From positions 1,940,554 to 2,004,553 of the forward strand of contig OY829950.1 of NCBI GenBank assembly GCA_963692475.1: a stretch of DNA of 64,000 nucleotides, in the 5' to 3' direction. Source of the DNA: Candidatus Cloacimonadales bacterium (GTDB taxonomy: Bacteria > Cloacimonadota > Cloacimonadia > Cloacimonadales > JAFGVF01). The notes beneath the pieces are model-generated. The model ran no database searches. It saw only the letters and a list, made by a program, of their open reading frames with translations, and was not told where the DNA came from. The position numbers and the translations under genes are program-made. Position 1 is the first letter of the stretch. The number at the start of each line of letters is the position of its first letter. Of this stretch, positions 1-64,000 are shown in pieces.

Positions 1-1989
1 ATTTTTCATTTCTAAGCTTGTTTTTCCTACTCCTCCTGCACTTGAACTCTGATTAGAATTATCTATATCCCAAAATGATGCGGTTACTGTAGTAGAGTTT
101 ATCGATCTCCCTATTAATCCTCCTGCCCAAACACTAGCATTTACTTTACCTGTACTGTAACATCTGCTAATATTAGAAGCCCAACCTTGACCGATAAAAC
201 CACCACTGCTTTGACGATTTTCATTATAATTGATAGGTTGAGTTTCATCTGTAACATCTCCATGACTGTAGCAGTTGGAATAGGATGAAGAGCCCGACAT
301 ACCTGAGAATCCTCCTAAAATAGATTCACCGAATAAACTCCCTCTACTATAGCAATTATTAAAGATGGAGTTGGAACTATTTCCATTAAAGATTCCAATT
401 TCAAAGACTCCAGATATATTTGCATTGCTATTACAATGATTGAATACTGAAGAGTTTAAACATCTACCTACTATACCTCCAGACTTGGAAAAACCAGAAA
501 CTGTCCCAGAAAAAGAGCAATATTCAACTACTGTATTATCTGTAAACCCTATCAAACCTCCAATCGTATCACCGTAAATAGTTCCAACTACATTGCAGTT
601 AAGCACTTGAGAATTGCTGGTTCTTCCGATTAATATTCCTCCTTCAACGTCTGTATAGATTGTAGCCTCATTTATATTGAGATTCTTGATCACGGAATTA
701 GTAACATATCCAAACAAGCCTACACATTGCACGTTTAGAGTACCTGGATCAAAGTTAATCAGTGTTCTATCATTCCCGTCGTAATTGCCTGAAAATGGCT
801 GTGAATTGTTTCCTATTGGAGTAAAACTCTCATTTTGTGCAGTTAAATAAGAATATAATTCAGTAAAATTAATATCTGCAGTTTGGATAAAATGTTTATC
901 CCAAATAGATTTGTTCTGACTTAACCACCATAGATGATGAATTGAATCGATTTGGTAGGGAGCTTGACTTGTTCCTGCTCCAATAGTCGTTATATGAGCA
1001 AATCCTTCCCATGCAAGAAATGGATAACCTGAATTAAAAAATGGATTAATTCCCCAATAGCCGGAATCACCATTTTCTTCCTCTACTTCGAAATCCCAAC
1101 CGGCTTGAAAATAGGTTTGGTAAACTTTCATTTCATCTGAAGTTTTTCCTATTCCTCCATCACTAAACAAGATATTAGAAGTCTGTGTATCCCAAAAACA
1201 GCCACTTATTGAAGTTAAGTTGGCATTGTTTCCGACCAGTCCTCCTGTTTCCGCTGAACCTGTTACTATTCCGGTACTATAGCAGTTAGTAATTGAGCCA
1301 TTATTGGTATATCCGGCTATACCACCTGTCTTATTGTTGCCATTTATCTCTCCCCAATTATAGCAATTGGCAATATGTCCTGCAAAATTTCCTCCAGCAA
1401 TTCCGCCTGCTCCCAAATTATCTCCCTCTATGTTTCCATTATTTAAACTGCAGGTAATATAGGAAGAGATATTAAGACCCATAATACCTCCAACGAAACT
1501 GCTAAAACCTTTGAGATTACCTGATGTGGAGCATTCTGAAACACTTGTGGAATCTGAAATTCCGACAAGAAATGATACACTGCTATGGCCTGTAATGTTG
1601 GCATCTGATAAAATAATTTTATTTAAAGTAGCCAAATCTGTAGAACCAAACAAACCGATAAAATCGCTACTTGGCCTATTGATGTAGAGGTTGAGAATTG
1701 CATATCCGTTACCATTGTAGGTCCCGGTAAAACTTACTAGTCCATCTCCTATCGGTAAAAATCCTTCTCCTGTATTCCAGTTATAGGTATCAGATGCATC
1801 AATTTCTGCAGTCTGAATATAATGCTTATCCCAACTTGAGCTGTTACTGCTAAGCCATAATAAATTATCTAAAGTGGTAATTTGATAAGGATTTTCTATT
1901 GTACCGCTTCCTAAGGGGGCTACTGCATCTGCTAATAGTAAAACTGTAAAAAGTATAAAAAAAACAAGCAATAAATTTCTAATAGTCAT
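1..1989 (-). CDS. GLUG-motif repeat secreted/surface protein, N-terminal 663 codons (C-terminus lies beyond base 1)
   Basis: Absent from ORF track (no stop in window). Hand translation of the minus strand from ATG at 1989 (GGAG RBS upstream) is open to base 1: MTIRNLLLVFFILFTVLLLADAVAPLGSGTIENPYQITTLDNLLWLSSNSSSWDKHYIQTAEIDASDT... It has a signal peptide and repeated GLFG / GGLVG / GGIAG / NCYSTG units typical of GLUG repeats. A second module start reads PYQIDSIHHLWWLSQNKSIWDKHFIQTADI. Confidence 0.8.
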   Translation of the reverse strand, partial: MTIRNLLLVFFILFTVLLLADAVAPLGSGTIENPYQITTLDNLLWLSSNSSSWDKHYIQTAEIDASDTYNWNTGEGFLPIGDGLVSFTGTYNGNGYAILNLYINRPSSDFIGLFGSTDLATLNKIILSDANITGHSSVSFLVGISDSTSVSECSTSGNLKGFSSFVGGIMGLNISSYITCSLNNGNIEGDNLGAGGIAGGNFAGHIANCYNWGEINGNNKTGGIAGYTNNGSITNCYSTGIVTGSAETGGLVGNNANLTSISGCFWDTQTSNILFSDGGIGKTSDEMKVYQTYFQAGWDFEVEEENGDSGYWGINPFFNSGYPFLAWEGFAHITTIGAGTSQAPYQIDSIHHLWWLSQNKSIWDKHFIQTADINFTELYSYLTAQNESFTPIGNNSQPFSGNYDGNDRTLINFDPGTLNVQCVGLFGYVTNSVIKNLNINEATIYTDVEGGILIGRTSNSQVLNCNVVGTIYGDTIGGLIGFTDNTVVEYCSFSGTVSGFSKSGGIVGRCLNSSVFNHCNSNANISGVFEIGIFNGNSSNSIFNNCYSRGSLFGESILGGFSGMSGSSSYSNCYSHGDVTDETQPINYNENRQSSGGFIGQGWASNISRCYSTGKVNASVWAGGLIGRSINSTTVTASFWDIDNSNQSSSAGGVGKTSLEMKN

Positions 1990-2411
1990 TTTATTCTCCT
2001 TTTCTTAAACCGGAATCCGTACTTAGTGTTATTAATTTTATGTTTATAAGTATTGTTACTAACCAATGATCATAATCATTTCCACCAGTAAATTATTCTA
2101 ACAGTAATTTAACTACTATTTTCAATTATAGTATGCTTATATCTTCAAATACTAATATGTTACTATATTTTTTAATTGTCAAGGAAATTTTATATTAGTA
2201 AGTCAGATGGTAGCAGAGACTGTTCAACCATCAAGCCAACTCCTGAATAGTTTATCCTTAAAGACGTCGATAATATTGCACATCTTCATGTTTGCTTGAC
2301 ATTTTAATATATTTTTTTGTTAGTAATCTTGCCTCTTCAGTGGGATGTTAGGCTCTTCAGTCGGACGGTGGAGATTCTCTCCGCCCCAAGCGAAGCTTGG
2401 AAATTCATAAA

Positions 2412-2493
2412 ATCCCGAAGGGATGAAAATATAATAGGCAGTGCTCGAAGACACTGTTACAGATAACAAAGAAATATGAGCCCTAGAGGGGCT
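2412..2493 (+). repeat. Three-hairpin module, copy 1 (left arm inside MITE family 4 copy P)
   Basis: H1 ATCCC-GAA-GGGAT 2412-2424. H2 CAGTG..CACTG 2439-2456, preceded by ATAATAGG. H3 AGCCC-TAGAG-GGGCT 2479-2493. Confidence 0.7.
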
Positions 2494-2599
2494 ACAATAT
2501 TCATTTCGTCAGATTTATTTTTGTTACACTTATCATCACATAGCAAACATGTGAAATGTAATTAACCCTTTATCTACATGATCAGTAAGAGGTATTTTC

Positions 2600-2682
2600 G
2601 CCCCTCCGGGGCTTAGGTTCCTGTGAAGATTCGGGTACAGTGTCTTTGAACACTGCCTATTATATCTGCATCCTTTCAGGAT
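2600..2682 (-). repeat. Three-hairpin module, copy 2 (right arm, inverted relative to copy 1)
   Basis: H3 GCCCC-TCC-GGGGC 2600-2612. H2 CAGTGT-CTTTGA-ACACTG 2638-2655. H1 ATCCT-TTC-AGGAT 2670-2682 (paired C-G to T-A change relative to copy 1). Confidence 0.7.
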
Positions 2683-3072
2683 TTAAGAGGCATTCTTCCA
2701 ATATCCGGAATTTAGACCTGGATAAAACTATAAGTCAATTCCAAAAGTATAGGGTAATTAATAATAAATGTGCACTATTTGAGCTCTATTAAAATCTAAA
2801 GTATTAAATATCAGTTGATTAATTTGAACAGTCTCTGGTAGCCCCTTCTGTCGGACAGTTGCCTTTTCTGTCTACAAAGATTTTCCTCCTCTTGAACTTA
2901 GGAACATGGTTGGTACTTAATATCCCTAGATAGTTTTCGAAAAGAGAGTTTTAGGCATAAGTCTTTTTATGGGTCTAAATTGTTAATATATGGATTTATG
3001 TATAATTATACCAAAGGTATTTAAAAATGACTATAGAAGTAATCATTGACATATAATCCCCATTTCGAATCA

Positions 3073-3101
3073 TTGACTCACATGCTAACCTTGGCTATAG
3101 T
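3073..3101 (+). promoter_or_regulatory. sigma-70-type promoter candidate for the 3131 gene
   Basis: TTGACT (3073-3078), 17-nt spacer, TATAGT (3096-3101), about 30 nt upstream of the ATG. Sequence match only. Confidence 0.4.
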
Positions 3102-3130
3102 AGCCACAACATTATTAAAGGAGAAAAAGT

Positions 3131-6100
3131 ATGAAAAAAACTATGTTAATGCTAGTGATGATGATTTTAACGATAACATCATCATTTGCCCAATTTATTG
3201 AAATCGGAGATAACGAGTCAACTGCTAGTACAACTACAGTTCCTTTCTCAGGTTTATGGGATTATGGTTGGTCAACAGCTGTTATTCCAGGAGAATTAAT
3301 AGGTGATGCAATTGAAATCAACTCAATTAGTTTTGATGTTTTTAACTCACCCGCTAATTATGAAATGCTTACACAAAAAGTGTATATGCGTCACACCCAA
3401 GTAGATACTGCAAGTGTTCAGTATCCTGATCCTGAAAACAATGGCTATACTTTAGTGTATGATGCAAATGTTACATGGAATGGACAAGGCTGGCAAGGAA
3501 TTGACTTTGCTACAAACTTCAATTATGATGGTTCATCCAACTTAGAAATTGTTTGGGAGAACTGGGATGGAGATTATGTATCAGGTTACCCAACATTCAG
3601 AAAAACTGCTGTAGATTACAATGTTGCTGCTTATAAAAGAGCAGACAATGATTTCCCAGCTGTTGCAGGTGCTTTTACTCAAGAGTATCCTAATATCAGA
3701 TTAGGTTTTGTTGCTGAAGGTTACCCTGGAACTCCTCAGTTGTTAAGCCCTATTGATTTAGCTACAGGTTTAGAAAGCTCAATTGAATTAACTTGGTCTT
3801 TAGGTGAAAATACTGTTAATGTAGATGTTTATCTATCTGATGTCAGAGAAGATGTAGTCTCAAATAACACTGACGCTAAAGTTGTTGATGCTCTTAATGT
3901 TACTGCCTTTAGCACAAATGTAGAATTAGGAACATCTAACTTCTGGAAAGTAGTTGCAAGAAATGCAGAAGGCATTACTGTTGAGTCTGCAATTTATACT
4001 TTTGCAACAAGATTTCCTGATAACGTAGTTGTTACTGAAATAGGTACATCAAGCACTGCAAACATTCCTTATAATCCATATTTTAAGTATGGATATTCTC
4101 AATCAATCTATTTAGCTGATGAAATAACTTTAACAGGTGCAATTGAAACTATCGCTTTTGATTTCAATGGTAACTCAGCATTTGAAGATGATGTTGTTGT
4201 TTATATGGGTACTACTGATGTTCAAGAATTTGCTTCAACAGAATCATGGCTTCCAGTAACTGAATTAACTGAAGTGTATAACGGTGTTCTTTCCTTAACT
4301 GCTCAAGCTGGTTGGGCTATGATTGACCTTGATACAGCTTTCAACTTCGATGGTACTTCAAATCTTGTTGTAGCTATGGAAAAAAATACAGGTGTATATA
4401 CTTCAAGTAGTGATTTTTTCTTCACACATAATGTAGATAATAACAGATCATTAAGACATCAAAGTGATAGTGTTGATGCCGATCCAACTACTCCTCCTGC
4501 AGGAACATTATATACTCAATTACCAAATACTTTATTCGTTTTTGGTCAAGCTGTTACTCCACTCCCAGTAGTTACTGATTTAGCAGCTACTGTTACAGAT
4601 AGTGATGTAGTTCTTACTTGGTCTGCTCCTGAAGTTGGTGAAAACACTTTTGTAGAATATCAAATCATTAAAGATGGTGCAGATTTAGCTACTACAGAAG
4701 AATTAACTTATACAGATTCTGACCTCGCTGATGGTGCTTATGAATATGCAATAAAAGTTGTTTATACAGAAGGTACTTCAGCTTTATCAAATGTAGTTAC
4801 AGCGACTATCTCAACTACTCCGGTAGAAGTTGAAGCTCCTGTTAACTTAACAGCTTCTGTGTCCGGTCAAGATGTTACTTTAAACTGGTTAGCTCCAGGC
4901 ACAGTGCTTCCTGACGAAATTACAGAAGGTTTCGAAGAATCATTCCCTCCAACAGCTTGGACTCTTAATGCTACAAATACTACAGCTTCTTGGGAACAAT
5001 ACGGTACTGTTGAATTCTCAACAAGTACTGTTACTCCTACCGAAGGTGAATACCAAGCAGGTGTTCAATGGGATTATTCAGCTCAAAACGAATGGTTAGT
5101 AACTTCTGAAATCTCTAATGTTACTAATTTAACCTTCGATTATTATGGAAGTTTAGGTTCAGAATATGGTGATAACTACTATGTAAAAGTATCTACAGAT
5201 GGTGGAAACAACTGGACTCCTGTTTGGAATGCTTCCGATTTTGCTGAAGGTGAAAATAACTATGATACTCCTGTTTCTATTGATTTATCAGCTTATGCTT
5301 CTGAGACAATTAAAGTGGCTTGGAACTTTGTTGATGGTGATGGACAAGGATTATGGTGGTCAACATTCATTGATAATATAGTATTTTCTAATAATGGAAG
5401 AATTCTTGCTTTTGATGCTTCTGAGTTAAAATCATTCTCAAAAGCTGAAAAAACTTTTACTAATCCAAGAGTTAGAAATAATAGATTTGCTAAAAATCCT
5501 AACTATGTTTCAACAAGAACTACTCGTGAATTAACAAGTTATAAAATCTATCGTAATGCTACTGAAATTGCAACAATTTCTTCAGATGTATTAACCTATA
5601 CAGATACAGAATTAGATTTTGCTAACTATGATTATTATGTAACAGCTCTTTATACTGAAGGTGAATCTAATCCTTCAAACACTGTTACTGTATCTATTAT
5701 AGATCCTGCTACAACTTTACCTCCAATGAACTTAACAGCTGATGTTAATAATTCAGATGTAGAGTTAAACTGGGAAGCCCCACTTGATTTATCAGAAGGA
5801 GCTTGGATTACTAAGGGTGCTGAAGAAAACAATGATGGAATTGGTATTAATGATGCAGCTGAATTTGGTGTAGCTCATAAATATACTCAAGATGAATTAG
5901 TAATGTATCAAGGTTTATACATTAATTCAATCAAATTCTTCCCTCGTGAAGCAACAGCTACTTATACAGTTACAGTATGGGGTGGAACTACTGGACAGAC
6001 TGTTCTTTACAGTTCAGAAGTAGTAGATTTTGTTAATGAAGCTTGGAATGAGCACCAATTAACTAACCCTGTTGCTATTCCTGCTTCAGGACCTCTTTAT

Positions 6101-7456
6101 ATTGGTTATATGATTGATACTCCTACAGGTTTCCCTGCAGGTTGTGATGCTGGTCCTGCTGTTGAAGGTGGAGATCAAATTCACTTTGCTGGTGAAGCTT
6201 GGGATGCACTTTCAGCTGTAGCTACTCCAAATATTAACTGGAACATTCAAGCCTTTGTTTCTCCTGAAGGAGCTGATAGAGCTTCTAACACTCTTATTGC
6301 TATGGCAAATAAAGCTATTAAAGCAACTAACAACAATGCTCAATTTCTTGCTGGAAACTTAAATCCAATTCTATCAAGCAGATTTAACATTGAAAGAGAT
6401 GTTACAGCTTACAAAATCTATCGTGATAATGAAGAAATTGCTGAAGTTGCTTCAGATATCTATACTTATACAGATAGTGCTTTAAGTAATGGAAGTTATG
6501 TTTATCATGTTACAGCTATGTATGGTACTGCAGAATCTTTAAATTCTAACAGCGTAACTGTTACAGTAAATAATTCTAATCCTGAAGATGTTATCATTGC
6601 AGATTCTTTTGAAAACTATGCAGACTTCGCCTTACAGTTCGGAGACTGGACACTTGTAGATGGCGATTTATCTCCAACTTATGGCTTTGATGGAACTACA
6701 TTCACAAATGCTGAAGCAATGATGTCTTACATAGTATTTAATCCTGCTATGACAAGTCCAGCTCTTACTGATGTAAGTTATCAAGCTCCTGATGGAAGCA
6801 AATATCTTGCCAGTTTTGCAGCTGTAACTCCTTCAAATAACGATTGGTTAATTTCTCAACCTTTCACTCTTGGTGATGAAGGTGAAGTAACTTTCAAAGC
6901 AAAATCTATTACTAATCAATATGGTTTAGAAAGATTCAATGTCTTAGTATCTACAGGTTCAACTAACCCTAACGACTTCACATCAATCTCAGGTGCTTCT
7001 TATACTGAAGCTCCTATTGCATGGACTAGTTATATGTATGGTTTAAATAATTATGCTAACCAAACTATCAGAGTAGCTATTCAATGTGTATCAAATGATG
7101 CATTTGTCTTCATGCTTGATGATTTCAAAGTTGTTTCAGCTGGTGGAACAGATAATGATGATACTACAGCTCCTGTATTAACTAATGCACTTAAAGGTAA
7201 CTACCCTAATCCTTTCAACCCTGAAACTACTATTTCTTACTCAGTTGAAAAAGCAGGAAAAGTTACTCTTGAAGTCTTTAATATCTTAGGACAGAAAGTA
7301 AAAACTCTTGTTAATGATTCAAGAAATGCAGGAAATCATAATGTCGTTTGGAATGGTAAGGATGATGCTGGAAGAGCTGTTTCCTCAGGTGTTTACTTCT
7401 ATCGTATGAAAAATGGCAACTATTCAAAAACAAACAAGATGATCTTAATGAAATAA
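3131..7456 (+). CDS. Large (1441 aa) secreted adhesin-like protein with T9SS-type C-terminal sorting domain
   Basis: AGGAG RBS and signal peptide [21 protein letters not shown]. Three Fn3-like repeats end in ...Y.VTA.Y..GES.PSN.VTV. Two segments ([14 protein letters not shown]..., [22 protein letters not shown]...) resemble cleaved-adhesin / choice-of-anchor-J domains. The C-terminus [16 protein letters not shown]...[21 protein letters not shown] is a T9SS CTD. Confidence 0.85.
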
Positions 7457-12490: not shown

Positions 12491-12624
12491 TTTATTTCCT
12501 CATTTCTTAGTAATCATATACTAATTTAGTAGGAATTAGTTTTTTGGCAAGTTTTTTTTCGATATTTTTTTCTTGGGTAATGGATAAATTGTTTGCGTTA
12601 GGGTTATATGGTACATAAAAAAAA

Positions 12625-12730
12625 ATGCCAGGCTACCGGTTGCACACTCTAAGCACCCCTTAATGCTGCTTCATTCCTGACCTGACATGGTTCGAGGGTT
12701 AAAGTTGCACCGGACCTGACTAAGTCAAAA
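12625..12730 (-). ncRNA. ffs: Signal recognition particle RNA (small bacterial 4.5S type)
   Basis: The minus strand reads ...GUCAGGUCCGGUGCAAC...GUCAGGUCAGGAAUGAAGCAGCAUUAAGGGG...GUGCAACCGGUAGCCUGGCAUUUUUUUU. The domain IV motif resembles E. coli CAGGUCCGGAAGGAAGCAGCC with a paired C-G to A-U change flanking the GGAA loop. The terminal helix closes CAGG/CCGG/UGCA, followed by a U-run. Ends are approximate. Confidence 0.75.
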
Positions 12731-13603: not shown

Positions 13604-13638
13604 ACTGCACAGAAAACGTTTTCTCAATATTACTCTTA

Positions 13639-13802
13639 AACCCAAATAATGCAATGGTTCTTTGAGAATAGCACTATATTCTTTTGCAAAAGTAACTTAC
13701 ATAATTCCTCCGAATATATATATTATATGCGTCAGAATTCTGCAAGCTATTTTGCTAAAAGAATTTGCACTCTTCACTAAAGCTCTATTGCACTATTAGG
13801 GT
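13639..13802 (+). mobile_element. MITE family 3 (TIR ACCCAAATAATGCA...), copy a
   Basis: Ends AACCCAAATAATGCAATGG ... CTATTGCACTATTAGGGT. The reverse complement is full-length alignable to 62839-63002. No ORF. Confidence 0.7.
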
Positions 13803-13828
13803 AAAAAATAGATAATCTCTGCTATCAA

Positions 13829-13908
13829 AGCTAGTGCTAAGGTAAATCTTTGTTTTAAATATACAGGGTCTAACTAACCCTGCATATTAAATGACATCCC
13901 TTCGGGAT
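13829..13908 (-). repeat. Three-hairpin module, copy 3 (free-standing, H3 degenerate)
   Basis: H2 CAGGGT-CTAACTA-ACCCTG 13864-13882. H1 ATCCC-TTC-GGGAT 13896-13908. The H3 position is reduced to AGC-TAGT-GCT. Confidence 0.6.
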
Positions 13909-14104
13909 TAGATAGATTGTCAAGTACCAATATAGTGGACACCTTTTTTATGTATCCTGAGTCATGTATCTCTTTTGAAAAATGAGACATTTACTCATAC
14001 TTTTGAGTTCTGTTGTCGACTCCATTTTGCATTCGTAATTTATTCGCATTTTTCAAAAGAAAATACATTCAGCTGTGTATCTGTTGATCATCTGGTAACC
14101 TCTT

Positions 14105-14890
14105 TTAATGATTTGCAAAATCATTTGGAGTAAAATACCCTAAACTTTTGTGAAGTCTCTGAGAGTTATAGATCATTACTGCATCTTTAGTAGCTTTTTT
14201 AAGACTTTCCATAGTGCTAAATGTCCGTTTTAATCCAAATTCATGCTTCATTGTACAATTTATCCTTTCAGCAATAGGGTTGTCATAGCATTTGCCATCA
14301 CCAGTCATACTAATCTTTATACCATGCTGTTTCAGAAGGTTAATAGTCTCATTACTTGTATATTGAGAACCATGATCTGAGTGGTGAATAAGATCGTTAG
14401 TATTATTAACATGTTTTAGCTGTCTTTTTAACATCTTTATATGATTATTAGTCAGCATATTAGAGGAAACTTCATAATCCAATATCTGTCTGGTATGCAT
14501 ATCACTTAGCAAAAACAAATAGTAAAATCCTTTGTCTTTAGAAATATAGGTAATATCAGTTACCCATACTTGATTTTTTCTCTCTACTATCATATTTTTA
14601 ATTAAATTAGGATATACTTTACTACCATCTGATATTGAAGTTTTGCAAAACTTTTTCTTTTTCCTTATTAACATATTTTGGTCTTTAAGAAGGTCATTAA
14701 GGTGCTTTTTTCCAATCTTTAGACCATCATTCTCCAGCATTTTCCATAATTTAACAGTGCCAACATAAGGCTGTGTTTCTTTGTACTGTTTCACTTTGGA
14801 GAGACACTGCAAGTCATTATGAGCGATGTGGAAGGCACTTTGAAGATATTTATAGTAACCTGACTTTGAAACATTTAATATTGAACACAT
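14105..14890 (-). CDS. IS3 transposase OrfB (DDE integrase core)
   Basis: LNVSKSGYYKYL (HTH_21-like), W.TDITYI, HSDHGSQYTS, DNP.AER..CT.K.E, all rve-type DDE motifs. One aa differs from copy 2. Confidence 0.9.
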   Translation of the reverse strand: MCSILNVSKSGYYKYLQSAFHIAHNDLQCLSKVKQYKETQPYVGTVKLWKMLENDGLKIGKKHLNDLLKDQNMLIRKKKKFCKTSISDGSKVYPNLIKNMIVERKNQVWVTDITYISKDKGFYYLFLLSDMHTRQILDYEVSSNMLTNNHIKMLKRQLKHVNNTNDLIHHSDHGSQYTSNETINLLKQHGIKISMTGDGKCYDNPIAERINCTMKHEFGLKRTFSTMESLKKATKDAVMIYNSQRLHKSLGYFTPNDFANH

Positions 14891-14895
14891 ATGTT

Positions 14896-15318
14896 TTATT
14901 CCTGATCTTTTAAAAGCCTTGATACTAAGATCTTTTGAGACTCTTTGGAGAAACCTGAATTTATGTTTTTTTTTAAATCAATACCTTTCTCTTCAGCCAT
15001 AAACTTAATATACTTTTCAAGGATTTCGTTTGAGAACTGGCTATCCTCTAAAGCCCGTTTTAACTGCTTATTTTCCTTTTTTAAAAGGTCTGCTTCTCTA
15101 GTTTCACGTTCTGTCATAATCATCACCTTTTTCCCTATTTTGTCGTTCATTCCATAACTCGCTAACCATCTACTTACGGTACTTTCTGAAACATTATATA
15201 TTCTACTAGATTCAGCTTGAGTTAAATCTCCTTGCTCAATCTCGTCAACAATTTTCATTTTAAAGGTTTCACTGTAGATTCTTTGCATTTTCGGTACCGT
15301 ACTTTTTTTCTTTAACAT
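14896..15318 (-). CDS. IS3 transposase OrfA (HTH)
   Basis: YSETFKMKIVDEIEQG...ESSRIYNVSESTVSRWL is the IS3 OrfA helix-turn-helix. A leucine-zipper-like region follows. Confidence 0.9.
   Translation of the reverse strand: MLKKKSTVPKMQRIYSETFKMKIVDEIEQGDLTQAESSRIYNVSESTVSRWLASYGMNDKIGKKVMIMTERETREADLLKKENKQLKRALEDSQFSNEILEKYIKFMAEEKGIDLKKNINSGFSKESQKILVSRLLKDQE
14966..14974 (-). other. Programmed -1 frameshift site candidate (A9 run on the coding strand)
   Basis: T9 on the plus strand equals A9 in orfA. Equivalent to 22810-22818 in copy 2. Confidence 0.6.
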
Positions 15319-15560
15319 GTCTTGCTCCTAGTTTAATATTTACTAGTCCACTTATATGGGACGACACAGATATGTCAGATAGTCTATTGGCGGTTTATTA
15401 GGGGTTTATTGGGCATCTATTGGCTATCCACTAAGCTGAAAACCAAGAGACACCTGATAGTGAAGATATATAAGTTCGATACATAAAATACGATCCTTTA
15501 GAAAAGAACTATGGATTAATTAAAAGACATGCTTGCTTAATATTGTTTTAAATTATATTA

Positions 15561-15833
15561 GGCTCTCTCCAAAGTAGAGTGGGTTAGTTTTATCATGAAA
15601 CTTGTTTTTACTGAAAGGAGGTGTTAACATCATCAAAAAAAAACGAAATATTATCGCCCTTCCAGGGCTAAGATAAATTTAGGTTTCATATATACAGGGT
15701 CTAACGAACCATGCCTATTAGATTAACATCCCTTCGGGATTATATGTGTATTAACTTCCATAAATTGACTATATATTTGTTAACATCTTACGACAATATT
15801 TATCATATTACCCACTCTACTTGAGATAGAGCC
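15561..15833 (-). mobile_element. MITE family 2 (23-bp TIR GGCTCTCTCCAAAGTAGAGTGGG), copy A
   Basis: GGCTCTCTCCAAAGTAGAGTGGG (15561-15583) and CCCACTCTACTTGAGATAGAGCC (15811-15833). Carries one three-hairpin module. No ORF. Confidence 0.7.
15656..15740 (-). repeat. Three-hairpin module, copy 4 (inside MITE family 2 copy A)
   Basis: H3 GCCC-TTCCA-GGGC 15656-15668. H2 CAGGGT-CTAACGA-ACCATG 15695-15713 (one mismatch). H1 ATCCC-TTC-GGGAT 15728-15740. Confidence 0.65.
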
Positions 15834-22465: not shown

Positions 22466-22888
22466 ATGTTAAAGAAAAAAAGTACGGTACCGAAAATGCA
22501 AAGAATCTACAGTGAAACCTTTAAAATGAAAATTGTTGACGAGATTGAGCAAGGAGATTTAACTCAAGCTGAATCTAGTAGAATATATAATGTTTCAGAA
22601 AGTACCATAAGTAGATGGTTAGCGAGTTATGGAATGAACGACAAAATAGGGAAAAAGGTGATGATTATGACAGAACGTGAAACTAGAGAAGCAGACCTTT
22701 TAAAAAAGGAAAATAAGCAGTTAAAACGGGCTTTAGAGGATAGTCAGTTCTCAAACGAAATACTAGAAAAGTATATTAAGTTTATGGCTGAAGAGAAGGG
22801 TATTGATTTAAAAAAAAACATAAATTCAGGTTTCTCGAAAGAGTCTCAAAAGATCTTAGTATCAAGGCTTTTAAAAGATCAGGAATAA
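22466..22888 (+). CDS. IS3 transposase OrfA (HTH)
   Basis: 140 aa, identical to copy 1 except V/I in SEST(V/I)SRWL. Confidence 0.9.
   Translation: MLKKKSTVPKMQRIYSETFKMKIVDEIEQGDLTQAESSRIYNVSESTISRWLASYGMNDKIGKKVMIMTERETREADLLKKENKQLKRALEDSQFSNEILEKYIKFMAEEKGIDLKKNINSGFSKESQKILVSRLLKDQE
22810..22818 (+). other. Programmed -1 frameshift site candidate (A9)
   Basis: orfB is in the -1 frame relative to orfA. The orfB frame is closed by TGA at 22804-22806 and opens at 22807, immediately before the A9 run. A slip would give ...GIDLKKKHKFRFLERVSKDLSIKAFKRSGIKHMCSILNVSKSGYY... Confidence 0.6.
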
Positions 22889-22893
22889 AACAT

Positions 22894-23679
22894 ATGTGTT
22901 CAATATTAAATGTTTCAAAGTCAGGTTACTATAAATATCTTCAAAGTGCCTTCCACATCGCTCATAATGACTTCCAGTGTCTCTCCAAAGTGAAACAGTA
23001 CAAAGAAACACAGCCTTATGTTGGCACTGTTAAATTATGGAAAATGCTGGAGAATGATGGTCTGAAGATTGGAAAAAAGCACCTTAATGACCTTCTTAAA
23101 GACCAAAATATGTTAATAAGGAAAAAGAAAAAGTTTTGCAAAACTTCAATATCAGATGGTAGTAAAGTATATCCTAATTTAATTAAAAATATGATAGTAG
23201 AGAGAAAAAATCAAGTATGGGTAACTGATATTACCTATATTTCTAAAGACAAAGGATTTTACTATTTGTTTTTGCTAAGTGATATGCATACCAGACAGAT
23301 ATTGGATTATGAAGTTTCCTCTAATATGCTGACTAATAATCATATAAAGATGTTAAAAAGACAGCTAAAACATGTTAATAATACTAACGATCTTATTCAC
23401 CACTCAGATCATGGTTCTCAATATACAAGTAATGAGACTATTAACCTTCTGAAACAGCATGGTATAAAGATTAGTATGACTGGTGATGGCAAATGCTATG
23501 ACAACCCTATTGCTGAAAGGATAAATTGTACAATGAAGCATGAATTTGGATTAAAACGGACATTTAGCACTATGGAAAGTCTTAAAAAAGCTACTAAAGA
23601 TGCAGTAATGATCTATAACTCTCAGAGACTTCACAAAAGTTTAGGGTATTTTACTCCAAATGATTTTGCAAATCATTAA
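22894..23679 (+). CDS. IS3 transposase OrfB (DDE integrase core)
   Basis: 261 aa, one aa different from copy 1 (NDFQCL vs NDLQCL). Probably expressed as an OrfAB fusion. Confidence 0.9.
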   Translation: MCSILNVSKSGYYKYLQSAFHIAHNDFQCLSKVKQYKETQPYVGTVKLWKMLENDGLKIGKKHLNDLLKDQNMLIRKKKKFCKTSISDGSKVYPNLIKNMIVERKNQVWVTDITYISKDKGFYYLFLLSDMHTRQILDYEVSSNMLTNNHIKMLKRQLKHVNNTNDLIHHSDHGSQYTSNETINLLKQHGIKISMTGDGKCYDNPIAERINCTMKHEFGLKRTFSTMESLKKATKDAVMIYNSQRLHKSLGYFTPNDFANH

Positions 23680-36852: not shown

Positions 36853-37124
36853 GGCTCTCTCCAAAAGTAGAGTGGGAAATTTGATAAATAATTTAAAAAG
36901 GGATTTATTCCTTCTGTTTTTATTTTTGTGAAAATAATATTTATCTAATCCCGAAGGGATGTCATTTAATAGGCAGGGTTCGTTAGACCCTGTATATATG
37001 AACCAAAGATTTATCTTAGCCCTGGAAGGGCGTCATTATTATTGATTTTGCTGATGTGGACATCCACTTTTAGACAAACTAAACACATGAACTAAATTAC
37101 GCCCACTCTACTTGAGAGAGAGCC
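36853..37124 (+). mobile_element. MITE family 2, copy B, nested in family 1
   Basis: TIRs GGCTCTCTCCAAAAGTAGAGTGGG / CCCACTCTACTTGAGAGAGAGCC. 8-bp direct repeat TTTTATTA at 36845-36852 and 37125-37132. Copy C has a single uninterrupted TTTTATTA at the equivalent position. Confidence 0.8.
36948..37031 (+). repeat. Three-hairpin module, copy 5 (inside MITE family 2 copy B)
   Basis: H1 ATCCC-GAA-GGGAT 36948-36960. H2 CAGGGT-TCGTTAG-ACCCTG 36974-36992. H3 GCCC-TGGAA-GGGC 37019-37031. Confidence 0.7.
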
Positions 37125-37255
37125 TTTTATTATAATATATTCATTGTATAATAGAAAGTAACGAGTTTAAGTTTACTGTTTAGAGTAAGTTTTGCTTGTA
37201 AATAATACTTTAATAATATAATTTTAAAACAATATTAAGCAAGCATGTCTTTTAA

Positions 37256-37445
37256 CCCAAATAATGCAGAAGATCTTTTAGAATAGCACTATATTCATTT
37301 GCTAAAGCATTTTACATAATTTCTCAGAGTATATATATTATACGCTGATAAATTCTGTAAAACCTTAATGCACCCCCTGTGTCCCCCTCAAAAAAGGGGA
37401 TAAGAATCTGCACTCTTCTGCAAAGCTCTACTGCACCATTCGGGT
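37256..37445 (+). mobile_element. MITE family 3, copy c, nested in family 1
   Basis: CCCAAATAATGCAG ... CTGCACCATTCGGGT flanked by TTAA (37252-37255 and 37446-37449). Copy A shows the uninterrupted site GGATTAATTAAAAG (15513-15526, opposite strand). Confidence 0.8.
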
Positions 37446-37763
37446 TTAATTAATCCATAGTTCTTTTCTAAAGGATCATATTATATGTATTGAACTTATA
37501 TATCTCCACTATCAGGTGTCTCTTGGTTTTCAGCTTAGTGGATGGCTAATAGATGCCCAATAAACCCCTAATAAACCGCCAATGGACTATCTGAAATAAA
37601 GCAGATAATGAAGGATTTAGATTTACCAAGAACAAAAAGATTGATTATTGGGTGTTAACAGAAAATTCTACAAAGAGGTGACCTATTTATGAAATTTTCA
37701 CCTGACTTGAACTTGAGTCTTTTGTTTTCGAGACATCATACTTGGATATAGTCTTCACATTAA

Positions 37764-60378: not shown

Positions 60379-60453
60379 GATGCAGTAGAACTTTTGTGAA
60401 GAGTGCAGAATAATATAGGGCTATTCACAAAGGTCTACTGCATTATTTTGGTT
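60379..60453 (-). repeat. MITE family 3, short derivative (copy e), between convergent fhs and activator genes
   Basis: GATGCAGTAGAAC ... GGTCTACTGCATTATTTTGGTT. The internal GTGAAGAGTGCA block is shared with copy b. Forms a long hairpin. Confidence 0.6.
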
Positions 60454-62764
60454 AAAACTTTAAATCATATTTACTTATTCGTCTGTGTAGAGAATACACA
60501 GTTATTCCCAGTAACATTGCAGCTTCAGTTTTCTTGTTATTAGTTTCCTTCATTGCTCTACAAATAGCTTGTTTTTCCAGAGTTTCTAAATGTAAAATAG
60601 TTGAAGAAGGAAGGGTCAGATTAGTTGTTTTTATATCTAAGCTTAAGTTATATATATCATCAGGGGTGATTTCACATTTATTATTAAATATAATTAGCTT
60701 CTCAATCACATTTTTTAGTTCTCTAACATTACCAGGATAATCATAGTCTGTTAATAGTTTTAAGGCAGGAATTGAGAGCTGAGGTTTCTTAATATGAATT
60801 CTGCTACTAATCTCTTCTAAAAAGGCATCGATTAGAATAGGAATATCATCTTTTCTTTCACGAAGAGGAGGAATGCAAATTTCTAAAGTATTGATTCTAT
60901 TCAAGAAATCTAATCTCATTTTTCCCAGCTTTACTTCCTTGTCAATTTCTCTATTGGTCGCTGAAATAAGTCTAAAATCAACAGGGACCTGCTTACTTGA
61001 ACCAAGAGGTGTTACTTTTTTCTCTTCAAGTACCCGTAACAGAGCGATTTGGATATCTTGAGGCATCTCTCCAATCTCATCCATAAAGACTGTACCATTT
61101 TTAGCAGCTTCAAAATATCCTGTATGACCAGAGACAGCACCAGTAAAAGCTCCTTTAACATGTCCAAATAGAGCAGAATTTACTATTCCAGGTGAAAAAG
61201 AACCACTGTTAACCGGTATGAAAGGATTGTTTTTTCTGGTACCTGAATGATGAATAATCCTAGCTAGGATATCTTTACCAGTTCCTGATTCTCCCCTAAT
61301 TAAAATACTTGCATCTGGATTAGTTGATGCTAATAGTGCCTTACTTATTACTTTCTGCATGGAAGAATCTATTCCTAACAAATTAACCCCAATTTTTGCA
61401 GATAATTCTCGGGAGATAAGAGAATTATTGCTCTGAAATATGAAGTGTTTTCTTACAGTATTTCCTACTAACTTCATTTGATCTCTTCTTTTCTCATTTC
61501 TTTCATTATCAGCAATTTCTCTGTGGAGTTTTTCTAATTCATCTAAACAAGAATAGGCTTTTTTATAATTACCTGTTTTCTCAAAACAAGTTGCTTGATT
61601 CCTTAAAACCTTAATCCGTAACGAAGTATTATTAATTGCTCGTGCTATTTCTTCTAATTTACTTAGATAGCTTAATGCCTTATCATAATTTTTAAGTTGC
61701 ATCTCAATATCTGAGTACTTTTCGTAAATTGATTTTTGTGCCCTGTGATTTTTAACCTGATTACTCAAATCTAAAGCCTTTCCTAACAATTCAAGTCCTT
61801 GGTCTATTCTCTTCGTTCTACTGTACAAATCACCTAAACTTACATAAAGACTAATAATTTGATCAAGAGCTTTCACTTTTTCAGCAAATTCAATAGATTT
61901 CTTAAACTTCTCCTCAGCTATTTCATTTTCATCAAACACGACTAAAAGATTACCCAAATTTGTTTGGACAGCATAATATAACTCAGGATCTCTTTGTAAA
62001 ATCCACTCTTTATCAATACTATCATACAATTCTTTAGCTTTTTCAACATTGTTGATAGTTCTATAGCACATTGCTAAATTATTAATTAATGCTACTCTAT
62101 CAATATCCTGTTCTCTATCATACAAACTTAAACCATCTTCCAAATATTCAATGGCTTTTTCGAAAAGATTCTTACTTATATATAATCTTCCCATAGCATT
62201 ATATGCTAGTTTTAAGGCATTTATTGAATTATACTTAAGGGCAAAATCCAAAGCTTCATTATAATAATATTCAGCTTTGTTTAAATCTCCAACAACTTCA
62301 TATAGATATCCTAAATTTGTGTATCTTCCGGGAAGTTCATCAGGTTTGCAATGTTTATTTGCTATATCTAAGGATTTTAAAAGATATTGTACCCCTCTTT
62401 CAATATCATGCTTTAACCACATTAAATAACCAAAATAGTCATAAATATTGGCTAAATAAAAATATCCAGTGAGATACTTTTCATGCTCTATGAAAACAGG
62501 CAAATATTCATTAAACCAATCTATATTATTAGATGCACGAACAAATCTAAAAAATAACTCAAAATTCGCACTCACTATATCTTTAACTTGCTTGTTAGGC
62601 TTAGCTTCAAAAGATAGAAACTCCTTCCACTTAGCTAAAAAATCATCAAAATAAGACTTAATCTCAATATTTCTTCCTTCAAAACATTTAGTAAATATTT
62701 CGGTAAATATTTCAAACTGCTCAACCCTGCTTGCAGTATTTATTTTTAAAAGCAAATCCTTCAT
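60452..62764 (-). CDS. sigma-54-dependent transcriptional activator with N-terminal TPR-repeat region (no receiver domain)
   Basis: AAA+ GESGTGKD Walker A, GAFTGA loop (VKGAFTGA), FMDEIGEM Walker B, C-terminal Fis-type HTH (AAMLLGITVYSLHRRI). About 430 aa of TPR-like repeats. ORF track start 62791; I prefer ATG 62764 (MKDLLLK, AAGGAG RBS). Confidence 0.88.
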   Translation of the reverse strand: MKDLLLKINTASRVEQFEIFTEIFTKCFEGRNIEIKSYFDDFLAKWKEFLSFEAKPNKQVKDIVSANFELFFRFVRASNNIDWFNEYLPVFIEHEKYLTGYFYLANIYDYFGYLMWLKHDIERGVQYLLKSLDIANKHCKPDELPGRYTNLGYLYEVVGDLNKAEYYYNEALDFALKYNSINALKLAYNAMGRLYISKNLFEKAIEYLEDGLSLYDREQDIDRVALINNLAMCYRTINNVEKAKELYDSIDKEWILQRDPELYYAVQTNLGNLLVVFDENEIAEEKFKKSIEFAEKVKALDQIISLYVSLGDLYSRTKRIDQGLELLGKALDLSNQVKNHRAQKSIYEKYSDIEMQLKNYDKALSYLSKLEEIARAINNTSLRIKVLRNQATCFEKTGNYKKAYSCLDELEKLHREIADNERNEKRRDQMKLVGNTVRKHFIFQSNNSLISRELSAKIGVNLLGIDSSMQKVISKALLASTNPDASILIRGESGTGKDILARIIHHSGTRKNNPFIPVNSGSFSPGIVNSALFGHVKGAFTGAVSGHTGYFEAAKNGTVFMDEIGEMPQDIQIALLRVLEEKKVTPLGSSKQVPVDFRLISATNREIDKEVKLGKMRLDFLNRINTLEICIPPLRERKDDIPILIDAFLEEISSRIHIKKPQLSIPALKLLTDYDYPGNVRELKNVIEKLIIFNNKCEITPDDIYNLSLDIKTTNLTLPSSTILHLETLEKQAICRAMKETNNKKTEAAMLLGITVYSLHRRISKYDLKF

Positions 62765-62838
62765 TGTAACTCCTTTCAGCTTGACGCTCAATATAATTAT
62801 AAAAAGCGAAATCGCAATAATGAGTCAAGCTATTTTTT

Positions 62839-63002
62839 AACCCAAATGGTGCAATAGACTTTAGTGAAGAGTGCAAATTCTTTTAGCAAAATAGCTTGGA
62901 GAATTCTGACGCATATAATATATATATTCGGAAGAATTATGTAAGTTACTTTTGCAAAAGAATATAGTGCTATTCTCAAAGATCTATTGCATTATTTGGG
63001 TT
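62839..63002 (-). mobile_element. MITE family 3, copy b
   Basis: Full-length reverse-complement match to 13639-13802. Ends CCCAAATGGTGCAATAG ... CTATTGCATTATTTGGGT, flanked by TTAA on both sides. Confidence 0.75.
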
Positions 63003-63206
63003 TAAATCTTGTTTTATCGTCCTTAGGAAACTCTTCAATCAGCAAGCCACCCTCTTCTATAGTTTATCCTTAAAGAAGTCGATAATATTGCACATCTTTA
63101 GGTTTTCTTGACATTTTACAATGAATGTATATTGGTAACAAAGCCTCTTCATTGGTAATGCGGATGACCACATTCGCTTCCAAGCGATAGCTTGGAAATT
63201 CTTAAA

Positions 63207-63288
63207 ATCCCAGAGGGATGAAAATATAATAGACAGTGTTCGAAGACACTGTTACGGATAAAAAAGAATAATGAGCTCTAGAGGGGCG
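63207..63288 (+). repeat. Three-hairpin module, copy 6 (left arm of Q)
   Basis: H1 ATCCC-AGA-GGGAT 63207-63219. H2 CAGTGT-TCGAAG-ACACTG 63234-63251. H3 GCTC-TAGAG-GGGC near 63274-63288 (T-G wobble on the plus strand). Confidence 0.65.
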
Positions 63289-63322
63289 ACAATATTTATT
63301 TATTTTTGTGCTAGTATATTAT

Positions 63323-63409
63323 CGCCCCTCTGGGGCTTAGGTCTGTGGGGGAATTATTGTACAGTGTCTAACGAACACTGCCTATTATATCTGCATCCTT
63401 TGATGATTC
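63323..63409 (-). repeat. Three-hairpin module, copy 7 (right arm of Q)
   Basis: H3 GCCCC-TCT-GGGGC 63323-63336. H2 CAGTGT-CTAACGA-ACACTG 63362-63380. H1 decayed (63393-63409). Confidence 0.6.
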
Positions 63410-63569
63410 TAAGATGTCTTCTTCCAATATCTGAGATTTAGATATAAATACGAAACTATAAATCAAATTAGAAAATATAAATAATTTTATATAAAATGTG
63501 CACTAATTGATTCATATGAAGGATTAAAGGATTTATTATCTATTAGTTAGATTGAACAGTCTCGTTCTA

Positions 63570-63625
63570 TGAGACTCTTCAATCACCAAGTCACCTACTC
63601 AAATAGCTTATCTTTATAGAATGTT
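63570..63625 (+). repeat. Solo left end of a third MITE family 4 copy
   Basis: TGAGACTCTTCAATCACCAAGTCACC...ATAGCTTATCTTTATAGAA aligns with the left ends at 2215 and 63026. It starts 6 nt after the right TIR of Q, so the two ends form a hairpin. Confidence 0.55.
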
Positions 63626-63644: not shown

Positions 63645-63669
63645 CGATTTCGCAAGTTTTGCGAAATCG
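63645..63669. promoter_or_regulatory. Perfect palindrome, candidate activator binding site (UAS)
   Basis: CGATTTCGCAA-GTT-TTGCGAAATCG (11-bp arms). The TCGCAAGTTTT core repeats 30 nt downstream (63680-63690). Half-site GCGAAATCGC recurs at 62806-62815 upstream of the activator gene. Confidence 0.4.
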
Positions 63670-63791: not shown

Positions 63792-63807
63792 TGGAATTCA
63801 TAATGCT
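63792..63807 (+). promoter_or_regulatory. Candidate sigma-54 (-24/-12) promoter
   Basis: TGGAATTCATAATGCT has GG and GC with the canonical 10-nt separation (consensus TGGCAC-N5-TTGCW). It lies 54 nt upstream of ATG 63861 and ~125 nt downstream of the palindrome. Confidence 0.35.
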
Positions 63808-63860: not shown

Positions 63861-64000
63861 ATGAAAAAACTTATCTTATTAATTTTGTTAGTTGTTTTAT
63901 GTATGTCGCTTTTTGCTTTAGACAAATGGGCTCCAGTGAATGTTCTTAGTGGAGCAGGTACATCTGATAATCCATATTTAGTAGAAGATTTTGCTGACCT
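63861..64000 (+). CDS. Secreted protein, N-terminal fragment (probable GLUG-family paralog; runs off the window)
   Basis: AGGAG RBS. MKKLILLILLVVLCMSLFALDKWAPVNVLSGAGTSDNPYLVEDFAD: signal peptide followed by the same G(S/A)GT..NPY.(I/V) module start as the protein at 1-1989. Confidence 0.7.
   Translation, partial: MKKLILLILLVVLCMSLFALDKWAPVNVLSGAGTSDNPYLVEDFAD

Follow-up and report, generated by a model that had tools for sequence, protein, structure and literature searches.

Miniature transposons (MITEs) such as Correia of Neisseria, RUP, Nezha and MITEAba12 are small and non-coding, carry inverted repeats together with a duplication of the target, and occur in multiple, mostly intergenic copies. 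They can fold into long hairpins and are often located upstream of genes. The Cloacimonadota element described here resembles them in all of these points. It is unlike them in its interior, which holds a nested, optional palindromic core derived from a separately dispersed module. The known MITEs also differ in their targets, which are short and defined by sequence, e.g., TA in case of Correia. A 2024 review of prokaryotic MITEs mentions no fixed distance or orientation with respect to a host -35 box (PMC10969869).

Insertion at a fixed distance from a DNA landmark and in a single orientation is likewise a property of Tn7 and of CRISPR-associated transposons. The landmark of these systems is the end of a target gene or a match to a guide RNA, not a promoter, and they are characterised by 5-bp duplications, TGT...ACA termini and arrays of TnsB sites. 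With a duplication of 8-9 bp and GAGAC...GTCTC termini, the element is not a Tn7-like derivative. A 'safe-haven' strategy, i.e., position-specific integration directly upstream of a transcription unit as set by promoter-bound machinery, is reported for Ty3 of yeast and for TRE5 and TRE3 of Dictyostelium (PMC6673722). [quoted passage not shown] REP/BIME sequences and the pneumococcal BOX elements are mosaics of short hairpin units in alternating orientation and thus recall the inner part of the Cloacimonadota element; its outer part, unlike them, has defined inverted termini and duplications.

Duplications of 8-9 bp are typical of the IS6/IS26, IS256 and IS903-group insertion sequences. The inverted repeat of the IS26 type, GGCACTGTTGCAAA, resembles the terminus GAGACTGTTCAA of the element, and we regard IS6, IS256 or IS903-type insertion sequences as possible parents. 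A derivative of IS6/IS26 would be expected to have a duplication of 8 bp and a partner with a DDE_Tnp_IS240 transposase; the duplication measures 8 bp in the window but 9 bp at locus L013. Ends that abut with a spacer of 5-7 bp, as described below, are reminiscent of the junctions seen in circles or dimers of copy-out/paste-in IS families. The insertion sequences that we did encounter, an IS3-type in the window and a DDE_Tnp_1/DUF772-type at locus L017, have other termini.

The window, i.e., the whole stretch of 64,000 nt from the Cloacimonadales contig OY829950.1 that was analysed, carries a non-coding element of approximately 620 bp (copy 1) in a divergent intergenic region of 1.14 kb. The region is bounded by a GLUG-motif gene (1-1989, minus strand) on one side and by a gene for a 1441-aa protein with a type IX secretion (T9SS) sorting domain (3131-7456) on the other. 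Relatives at the protein and DNA level assign the window to Cloacimonadota, on a chromosome of 3.08 Mb. The original prediction described this element as a MITE with perfect 13-bp inverted repeats and a 6-bp target-site duplication, and its coordinates are all reproduced by our analysis: the 13-mer AGAGACTGTTCAA is located at 2215-2227, its exact reverse complement at 2824-2836, and the direct repeat GGTAGC at 2209-2214 and 2837-2842. Within the window, the exact 13-mer is confined to these two ends. Since near-matches with at most two mismatches number eight where 3.1 are expected, the case for the element rests on similarity over its whole length and not on the 13-mer.

The lengths of both repeats have to be revised. 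An alignment of 18 left ends of the family reveals that the base preceding GAGAC is variable; the inverted repeat of the family is therefore the 12-mer GAGACTGTTCAA rather than a sequence of 13 bp. It is found without any exchange in nine of the 18 left ends, with one mismatch in six and with two in the remaining three, while seven right ends match the terminus with at most two mismatches each. In copy 1, the left terminus accordingly spans 2216-2227 (plus strand) and its complement at the right end, which reads TTGAACAGTCTC on the plus strand, spans 2824-2835 (minus strand). With termini of 12 bp, the direct repeat of the window copy is to be read as TGGTAGCA (2208-2215) and TGGTAGCC (2836-2843), which agree in seven of eight positions. 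The copy at locus L013 (OY782499.1, 3395-4007) has a perfect duplication of 9 bp, ACAGGCTGG (9/9), which directly abuts GAGAC...GTCTC. Judged from these sequences, a duplication of 8-9 bp combined with a 12-bp inverted repeat is more likely than one of 6 bp combined with 13 bp. The duplication is seen in two of the four copies that have both ends, namely copy 1 and L013, and is absent from the complete copies L004 and L002. No recognisable duplication is present at the ends of the second window copy. GGTAGC is no conserved part of the element, since the flanks differ at every copy. Further copies and empty sites are described below, and the findings that the original prediction had named as its refutation are thus not seen.

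No open reading frame of copy 1 exceeds 50 aa, and none is kept between copies, which supports the earlier description of the element as non-coding. A second complete copy in the window, running from GAAACTCTTCAA to TTGAACAGTCTC, and a truncated solo left end had also been reported; both are confirmed, with their coordinates slightly adjusted to 63027-63563 and 63571-63625, respectively (both plus strand). Copy 2 aligns over its whole length with a mean column identity of 79% to copy 1. The solo end begins 7 bp past the right terminus of copy 2 and is 78% identical to the left end of that copy.

A search with the 20-mer GTCGATAATATTGCACATCT of the left arm located 14 loci in three other Cloacimonadota metagenome-assembled genomes (MAGs). 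All of these belong to the family according to BLAST, their identity to the left end being 72-87%. A scan of metagenomes with the same 20-mer returned a chance match only (L016). An additional copy is located at the syntenic locus L019. Overall, the family comprises at least 19 left ends at unrelated loci in five Cloacimonadota genomes, all of which have the terminus GAGACTGTTCAA and the conserved left arm in common. In the fragmented MAG, many copies are located at contig ends, as expected of a multi-copy repeat.

Comparison of presence and absence between genomes, which had been suggested as a check, was possible for copy 2. Its locus is empty in two related genomes, L018 (OY782831.1) and L020, and the solo end is likewise missing there. 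Both genomes retain the promoter motif AAAAATAGCTTGACT of the neighbouring sigma-54 activator gene, and OY782831.1 carries family copies at other loci (L002). At the locus of copy 1, the only syntenic relative found, L019, is occupied at the same promoter. An empty site for copy 1 was not found, as the T9SS-gene orthologues at L017 and L018 differ in upstream synteny. The window was also considered as an empty site for the PepF locus of L013, and this was dismissed because the 596-aa gene of the window is non-homologous.

Small size (342-620 bp) without a transposase reading frame, conserved terminal inverted repeats, duplications abutting these termini and copies at non-homologous loci are thus all found, and the element qualifies as a real miniature transposon by each property tested except a matching autonomous insertion sequence. 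With the corrections given here, the original MITE reading stands, and the empty copy 2 sites in two relatives add to it.

The element is not the single homogeneous unit that the original prediction implied. Copy 1 is built as a nest of inverted repeats. Its left terminus is followed by a conserved left arm (2228-2345, plus strand), which includes the 20-mer at 2270-2289 and an inward-facing TTGACA at 2296-2301 (63108-63113 in copy 2, both as previously located). The left arm of approximately 130 bp retains 78-87% identity across genomes. Two small G+C-rich hairpins follow at 2368-2401 (plus strand), GGTGGAGA-TTC-TCTCCGCC and CCAAGC-GAA-GCTTGG. Other copies carry a variant of different sequence in which stems are retained (GCGGATG-CCCA-CATCCGC; variants A and B). 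The interior is a long imperfect palindrome, whose arms of 48 nt (2410-2457 and 2637-2684) are 88% complementary. Each half of it is a module of approximately 95 nt with three hairpins, H1 (GCCCC..GGGGC), H2 (ACAGTGTC..ACACTG) and H3 (ATCC..GGAT). The left half (2390-2508, minus strand; 113.6 bits) holds the module in inverted orientation, so that H3-H2-H1 is read on the plus strand, and the right half (2584-2704, plus strand; 112 bits) holds it in direct orientation. The two are separated by a variable, non-palindromic centre (2509-2583), which is shorter in copy 2 (a gap of 61 columns). The right arm (2705-2823, plus strand) is conserved less than the left and contains an inward-facing TTGACT (minus strand, 2738-2733). 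Inward-facing TTGAC(A/T) hexamers are a feature of both arms, where their distance is 81-82 nt to the left end and 96-98 nt to the right end of the element, and both tips of the element read TTGAAC in the outward direction.

The hairpin module also occurs alone, within other repeats, at 13802-13930, 15640-15762 and 36926-37047. A covariance model built on seven copies and searched against the window and the fetched loci gave 22 matches in both orientations and in several contexts. In the module alignment, 91.5% of the cells are paired and 12 of 16 pairs exhibit compensatory changes; none of the shuffled and slid controls comes near these values of pairing and covariation. Short palindromic units in varied orientation and context, the hallmark of REP/BIME-type sequences, are thus found for the inner module only. 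Small G+C-rich hairpins of the same types as those described above are also observed beyond the right ends of the window copy and of L013, in the flanking DNA. In addition, the element copies are mosaics of variant blocks.

Two short copies, L004 (342 bp) and L002 (349 bp), keep both arms and the termini, while a single H3-type hairpin takes the place of the palindrome. Hence, the palindrome is optional, and the element is a composite of a shell of approximately 340 bp that may hold a nested palindrome of hairpin modules. Either a later nesting of the palindrome or its deletion between two H3 hairpins may account for the two versions.

A highly stable fold is predicted for the element (z-scores of -12.9 and -8.8), and large negative z-scores are found on both strands. 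These values follow from the nested inverted repeats and are by themselves no sign of an RNA gene. Rfam 15 holds no family for the element or the module at either gathering or permissive thresholds; the sole Rfam hit in the window is the SRP RNA at 12623-12721, and nothing within 2000-3130 is better than E=5.7. The original prediction had noted that the -10 region downstream of the internal TTGACA is not conserved. No canonical -10 hexamer follows the TTGACA at 2296-2301, and any promoter activity of this hexamer, outward or inward, is thus hypothetical. A sigma-54 promoter in the left arm was rejected by eye because the GG at -24 is missing.

A regularity that was absent from the original prediction concerns the position of the element with respect to an external host promoter. 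Hexamer positions were counted outward from the left terminus in a small sample of 15 assessable left ends; four genomes are represented, and a single fragmented MAG contributes 10 of the ends. Ten of these 15 copies have an exact TTGACA that begins at nt 33-35 of the flank, and four have a hexamer with one mismatch (TTGACT, TTGACG or TTAACA) that begins at nt 34-36. In the fifteenth, window copy 2, a MITE of a different family (family P, 62839-63002) is located inside the spacer, and its removal restores approximately 33 nt. Overall, each of the 15 copies thus has a TTGACA-type -35 box that begins 33-36 nt from the terminus, copy 2 with the intervening repeat removed. In nearly every copy of the element, the left tip lies 31-35 bp upstream of the box, a spread of 5 nt. 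From the rate of TTGACA in the window (2.7e-4 per position), approximately 0.01 exact hexamers are expected by chance. On the opposite strand of the left flank, the hexamer is found in none of the 15 copies. The spacer between terminus and hexamer is A+T-rich and unrelated between copies, except for an A that is invariant nine bases upstream of the hexamer and for T(C/A) directly before it; both are seen at unoccupied promoters, too. In both copies with a duplication, the distance between duplication and hexamer is exactly 25 nt.

For copy 1, the hexamer is the TTGACA at 2177-2182 (minus strand) upstream of the GLUG-motif gene, 34 nt from the left terminus. It lies outside the element, is proposed as the landmark of the target, and is listed as part of a promoter TTGACA-17-CATATT at 2182-2154 on the minus strand. 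For copy 2, it is the TTGACT at 62823-62828 (minus strand) upstream of the sigma-54 activator gene (60452-62791, minus strand), the promoter motif of which is the one conserved in L018 and L020. That TTGACA is a genuine promoter -35 element of these genomes is evident from its distribution 40-99 nt upstream of start codons, where it occurs 18 times on the coding strand vs. 0 times on the other. A canonical -10 hexamer at constant spacing was not found after the flanking TTGACA. All copies are intergenic. At 14 out of 14 assessable independent loci the left end faces the start of a gene that is directed away from the element, in many cases with only 50-60 nt between the flanking hexamer and the start codon. 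These genes are unrelated to each other. They encode GLUG and T9SS proteins, a sigma-54 activator, Rex, an ammonium transporter, signal peptidase I, adenylate kinase, CotH and PepF, and the association with adhesin-like genes that the two window copies had suggested is thus not a general one.

Two controls lack such a constraint: the flanks of the right ends have no constant feature, and family-P MITE ends from the same DNA keep no fixed distance to TTGACA. We also considered the flanking TTGACA as a part of the element and rejected this, as the duplications directly adjoin the termini, the spacer shows no conservation and the promoter is present in element-free genomes. The latter observation assigns the hexamer to the host. 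In the literature, including the MITE review cited above, we found no description of a bacterial element with a fixed distance to a -35 box; in logic, Ty3 at genes of RNA polymerase III comes closest.

We consider it likely that the element is a Cloacimonadota-specific, non-autonomous MITE that is mobilised in trans and inserts non-randomly, with its left end towards sigma-70-type promoters. A transposase acting in trans would recognise the 12-bp termini and introduce staggered cuts of 8-9 bp into the target. The left end faces the promoter, such that the duplicated bases are followed by approximately 25 bp and the -35 box. The junction is therefore placed at approximately -60 to -70 from the transcription start, just upstream of the UP-element region and at the upstream edge of the RNA polymerase footprint, and insertion at that position spares the core promoter and the gene. 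Longer copies, such as that of 620 bp in the window, represent the basic element of approximately 340 bp plus an optional central palindrome of two inverted modules of about 95 nt, which belong to a dispersed repeat. The placement and the modular build are observed in the sequences; we infer that the fixed position results from target choice during transposition and that a DDE-type enzyme is responsible. Whether this is a bacterial DNA transposon that chooses its targets by reading promoters, either as TTGACA-like DNA, with the domain that also binds its own arms, or as bound polymerase, in one orientation and approximately 33 bp upstream of the -35 box, is in our judgement an evenly balanced question. 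The site might be read by a protein that binds the TTGACA-like motifs of the element and likewise the -35 box at the target. Alternatively, RNA polymerase bound at the promoter might serve as the docking point.

The same arrangement could arise without target choice, if MITEs insert more or less at random and only harmless or useful copies just upstream of intact promoters survive, e.g., by providing an upstream activating site. The intergenic position of all copies is what such survivorship predicts, and the unusual conservation of the left arm on the promoter side could reflect a selected regulatory role. We nevertheless regard this explanation as unlikely. Neutrality permits any position upstream of approximately -60, but the observed spread covers 31-35 nt only, and at L013 approximately 450 bp of intergenic DNA was open to insertion. 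A benefit that explains the orientation in 14 out of 14 cases would have to be one and the same at the promoters of adenylate kinase, signal peptidase, Rex, the ammonium transporter and surface proteins, and the family-P MITE of the same genomes is unconstrained. The 5-nt spread, the strict orientation, the unrelated genes and this unconstrained second family make survivorship alone a weaker explanation than target choice. We assign an even lower probability to the notion that short palindromic units make up the whole feature as a mosaic of the REP/BIME or BOX type. Such a mosaic would have spread through recombination or with the help of a REP-associated tyrosine transposase, and not as a cut-and-paste unit with inverted termini. 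The 22 occurrences of the module in both orientations and several surroundings, the G+C-rich hairpins outside the element and the block-wise variation of the copies would all be accounted for. This scheme fits the inner modules, but not the outer element: a shell with constant termini and an 8-9 bp duplication is missing from REP and BOX, and the short copies keep both arms and the termini without a full module.

We see hardly any room for an immobile feature between divergent genes, i.e., a conserved host regulatory region or the gene of a structured ncRNA with the TTGACA at 2296-2301 as its own promoter. The conservation of this hexamer, the z-scores of the fold and the compensatory base changes in the three module hairpins are what one would expect of an ncRNA. 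The stability, however, is trivial given nested inverted repeats and is equal on both strands, the centre is dispensable in view of the copies of 342-349 bp, a canonical -10 is missing, and Rfam has no match. Furthermore, an immobile feature would not be expected to have inverted termini with duplications, to occur at unrelated loci of different genomes, or to be absent at orthologous loci.

For a MITE that is mobilised in trans, the original prediction had called for further copies and for a transposase-bearing relative. Copies were found as described, a relative was not: neither the window nor approximately 190 kb of fetched loci nor the plasmid, phage and viral collections contain a transposase gene bounded by the termini of the family. 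BLAST against plasmids and phages and scans of viral contigs with two patterns gave no match. Since no partner was found, we infer transposition rather than demonstrate it. Three candidates for the partner were dismissed. The termini of the IS3-family copies in the window read TGTC..., those of the DDE_Tnp_1/DUF772 insertion sequence in L017 read CAGACTGTGTGAAA, and a 132-aa reading frame that follows the left arm in L005 consists of a tandem repeat of low complexity.

A further MITE alone would be routine, and the interest of the present one lies in its apparent promoter targeting. If true, this mode of target selection, with distance and orientation both fixed upstream of ordinary promoters, would be new for bacteria and would parallel, in a prokaryote, the 'safe-haven' targeting by Ty3 and TRE. 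It would account for a high copy number of repeats in a compact genome without breakage of genes and, for an uncultured phylum, would provide a ready marker of the promoters that are active. A transposase or accessory factor able to read -35/UP-element DNA or RNA polymerase would also have to be expected, and such a factor could serve as a tool to insert DNA close to promoters. Each insertion displaces the DNA upstream of approximately -60 by 340-620 bp, so that the family could rewire the regulation of many genes.

The comparison of L019 with the window adds a complication at the occupied promoter. The hexamer and the region downstream of it are 91% conserved. The 16-18 nt adjoining the left terminus are non-homologous to the window, amid surroundings of 91% identity, and a simple model in which the element inserts and stays is thus insufficient. 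Two left ends, the solo end of the window and that of L008, adjoin the right end of another copy with a spacer of 5-7 bp instead of a promoter. At L003, the copy carries a 9-nt duplication of its own tip.

The 3-hairpin module, a unit of approximately 95 nt of which two inverted copies form the optional central palindrome of the MITE family 4, was also found outside this family, at 13802-13930, 15640-15762 and 36926-37047 of the window. There it is enclosed by different inverted termini, GGCTCTCTCCAAAGTAGAGTGGG and CCCACTCTACTTGAGATAGAGCC (15561-15583 and 15811-15833), and it is therefore a separately dispersed unit. Two module copies flank the first of two copies of an IS3-family element (approximately 13918-15372, minus strand; the second lies at 22466-23679, plus strand). 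This element encodes an HTH OrfA of 140 aa and an rve OrfB of 261 aa, and its ends are of the TGTC...AGTGGAC type.

Short G+C-rich hairpins of the types seen inside the family-4 element (CTTCTGTCGGACAG... and GCGGATG...CATCCGC) also occur immediately outside its right ends, at 2843-2862 of the window and in the right flank of the copy in locus L013, which suggests a REP-like small repeat dispersed through intergenic DNA. The short repeat CTGGGAATGCGG is the insertion site of a DDE_Tnp_1/DUF772 insertion sequence in L017 (11100-13150, termini CAGACTGTGTGAAA). In one of its variants, the left region of family 4 includes this motif as well, and a related insertion occupies that position in L008. 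In one family copy, in L005 (7240-7640), an internal tandem array replaces the usual centre; its repeats are each about 60 nt long (ACCGAAAACACAGAATACACCGAAAAGAAAGGAGAAAACTTAGCC...).

In the syntenic relative L019 the intergenic region is 91% identical overall to that of the window, whereas the 16-18 nt adjoining the left terminus of the family-4 element are unrelated (L019 2085-2101 versus window 2199-2215); the spacer between terminus and TTGACA, the -35 hexamer of the host promoter, measures 31 nt in L019 and 33 in the window.

Upstream of the gene starting at 63861 we observe a perfect palindrome, CGATTTCGCAAGTTTTGCGAAATCG (63645-63669), and a GG-N10-GC motif, TGGAATTCATAATGC (63793-63806), both of which are kept in L018 (13700-13900). 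Together they look like a sigma-54 promoter accompanied by binding sites for the adjacent activator, and copy 2 is located between this unit and the promoter of the activator gene itself. A second repeat family, P, comprises palindromic elements of approximately 165-195 bp with the ends TTAAACCCAAATAATGCA...TGCATTATTTGGGTTTAA, located at 13636-13803, 37251-37446 and 62839-63002. The last of these separates copy 2 from its target promoter. The distance of family P elements to TTGACA is not fixed.

In two related genomes (L018 6001-17091 and L020 1-9857) a large T9SS gene, the sigma-54 activator gene and a 758-aa T9SS gene are adjacent, whereas in the window they are located at 3.1, 34.2 and 60.4 kb, so that tens of kb separate them, and their arrangement is in part inverted. 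The rearrangement breakpoints fall at intergenic regions rich in repeats.

The window further contains a bacterial small SRP RNA at 12623-12721 on the minus strand, which scores 73.4 bits where the gathering score is 40.
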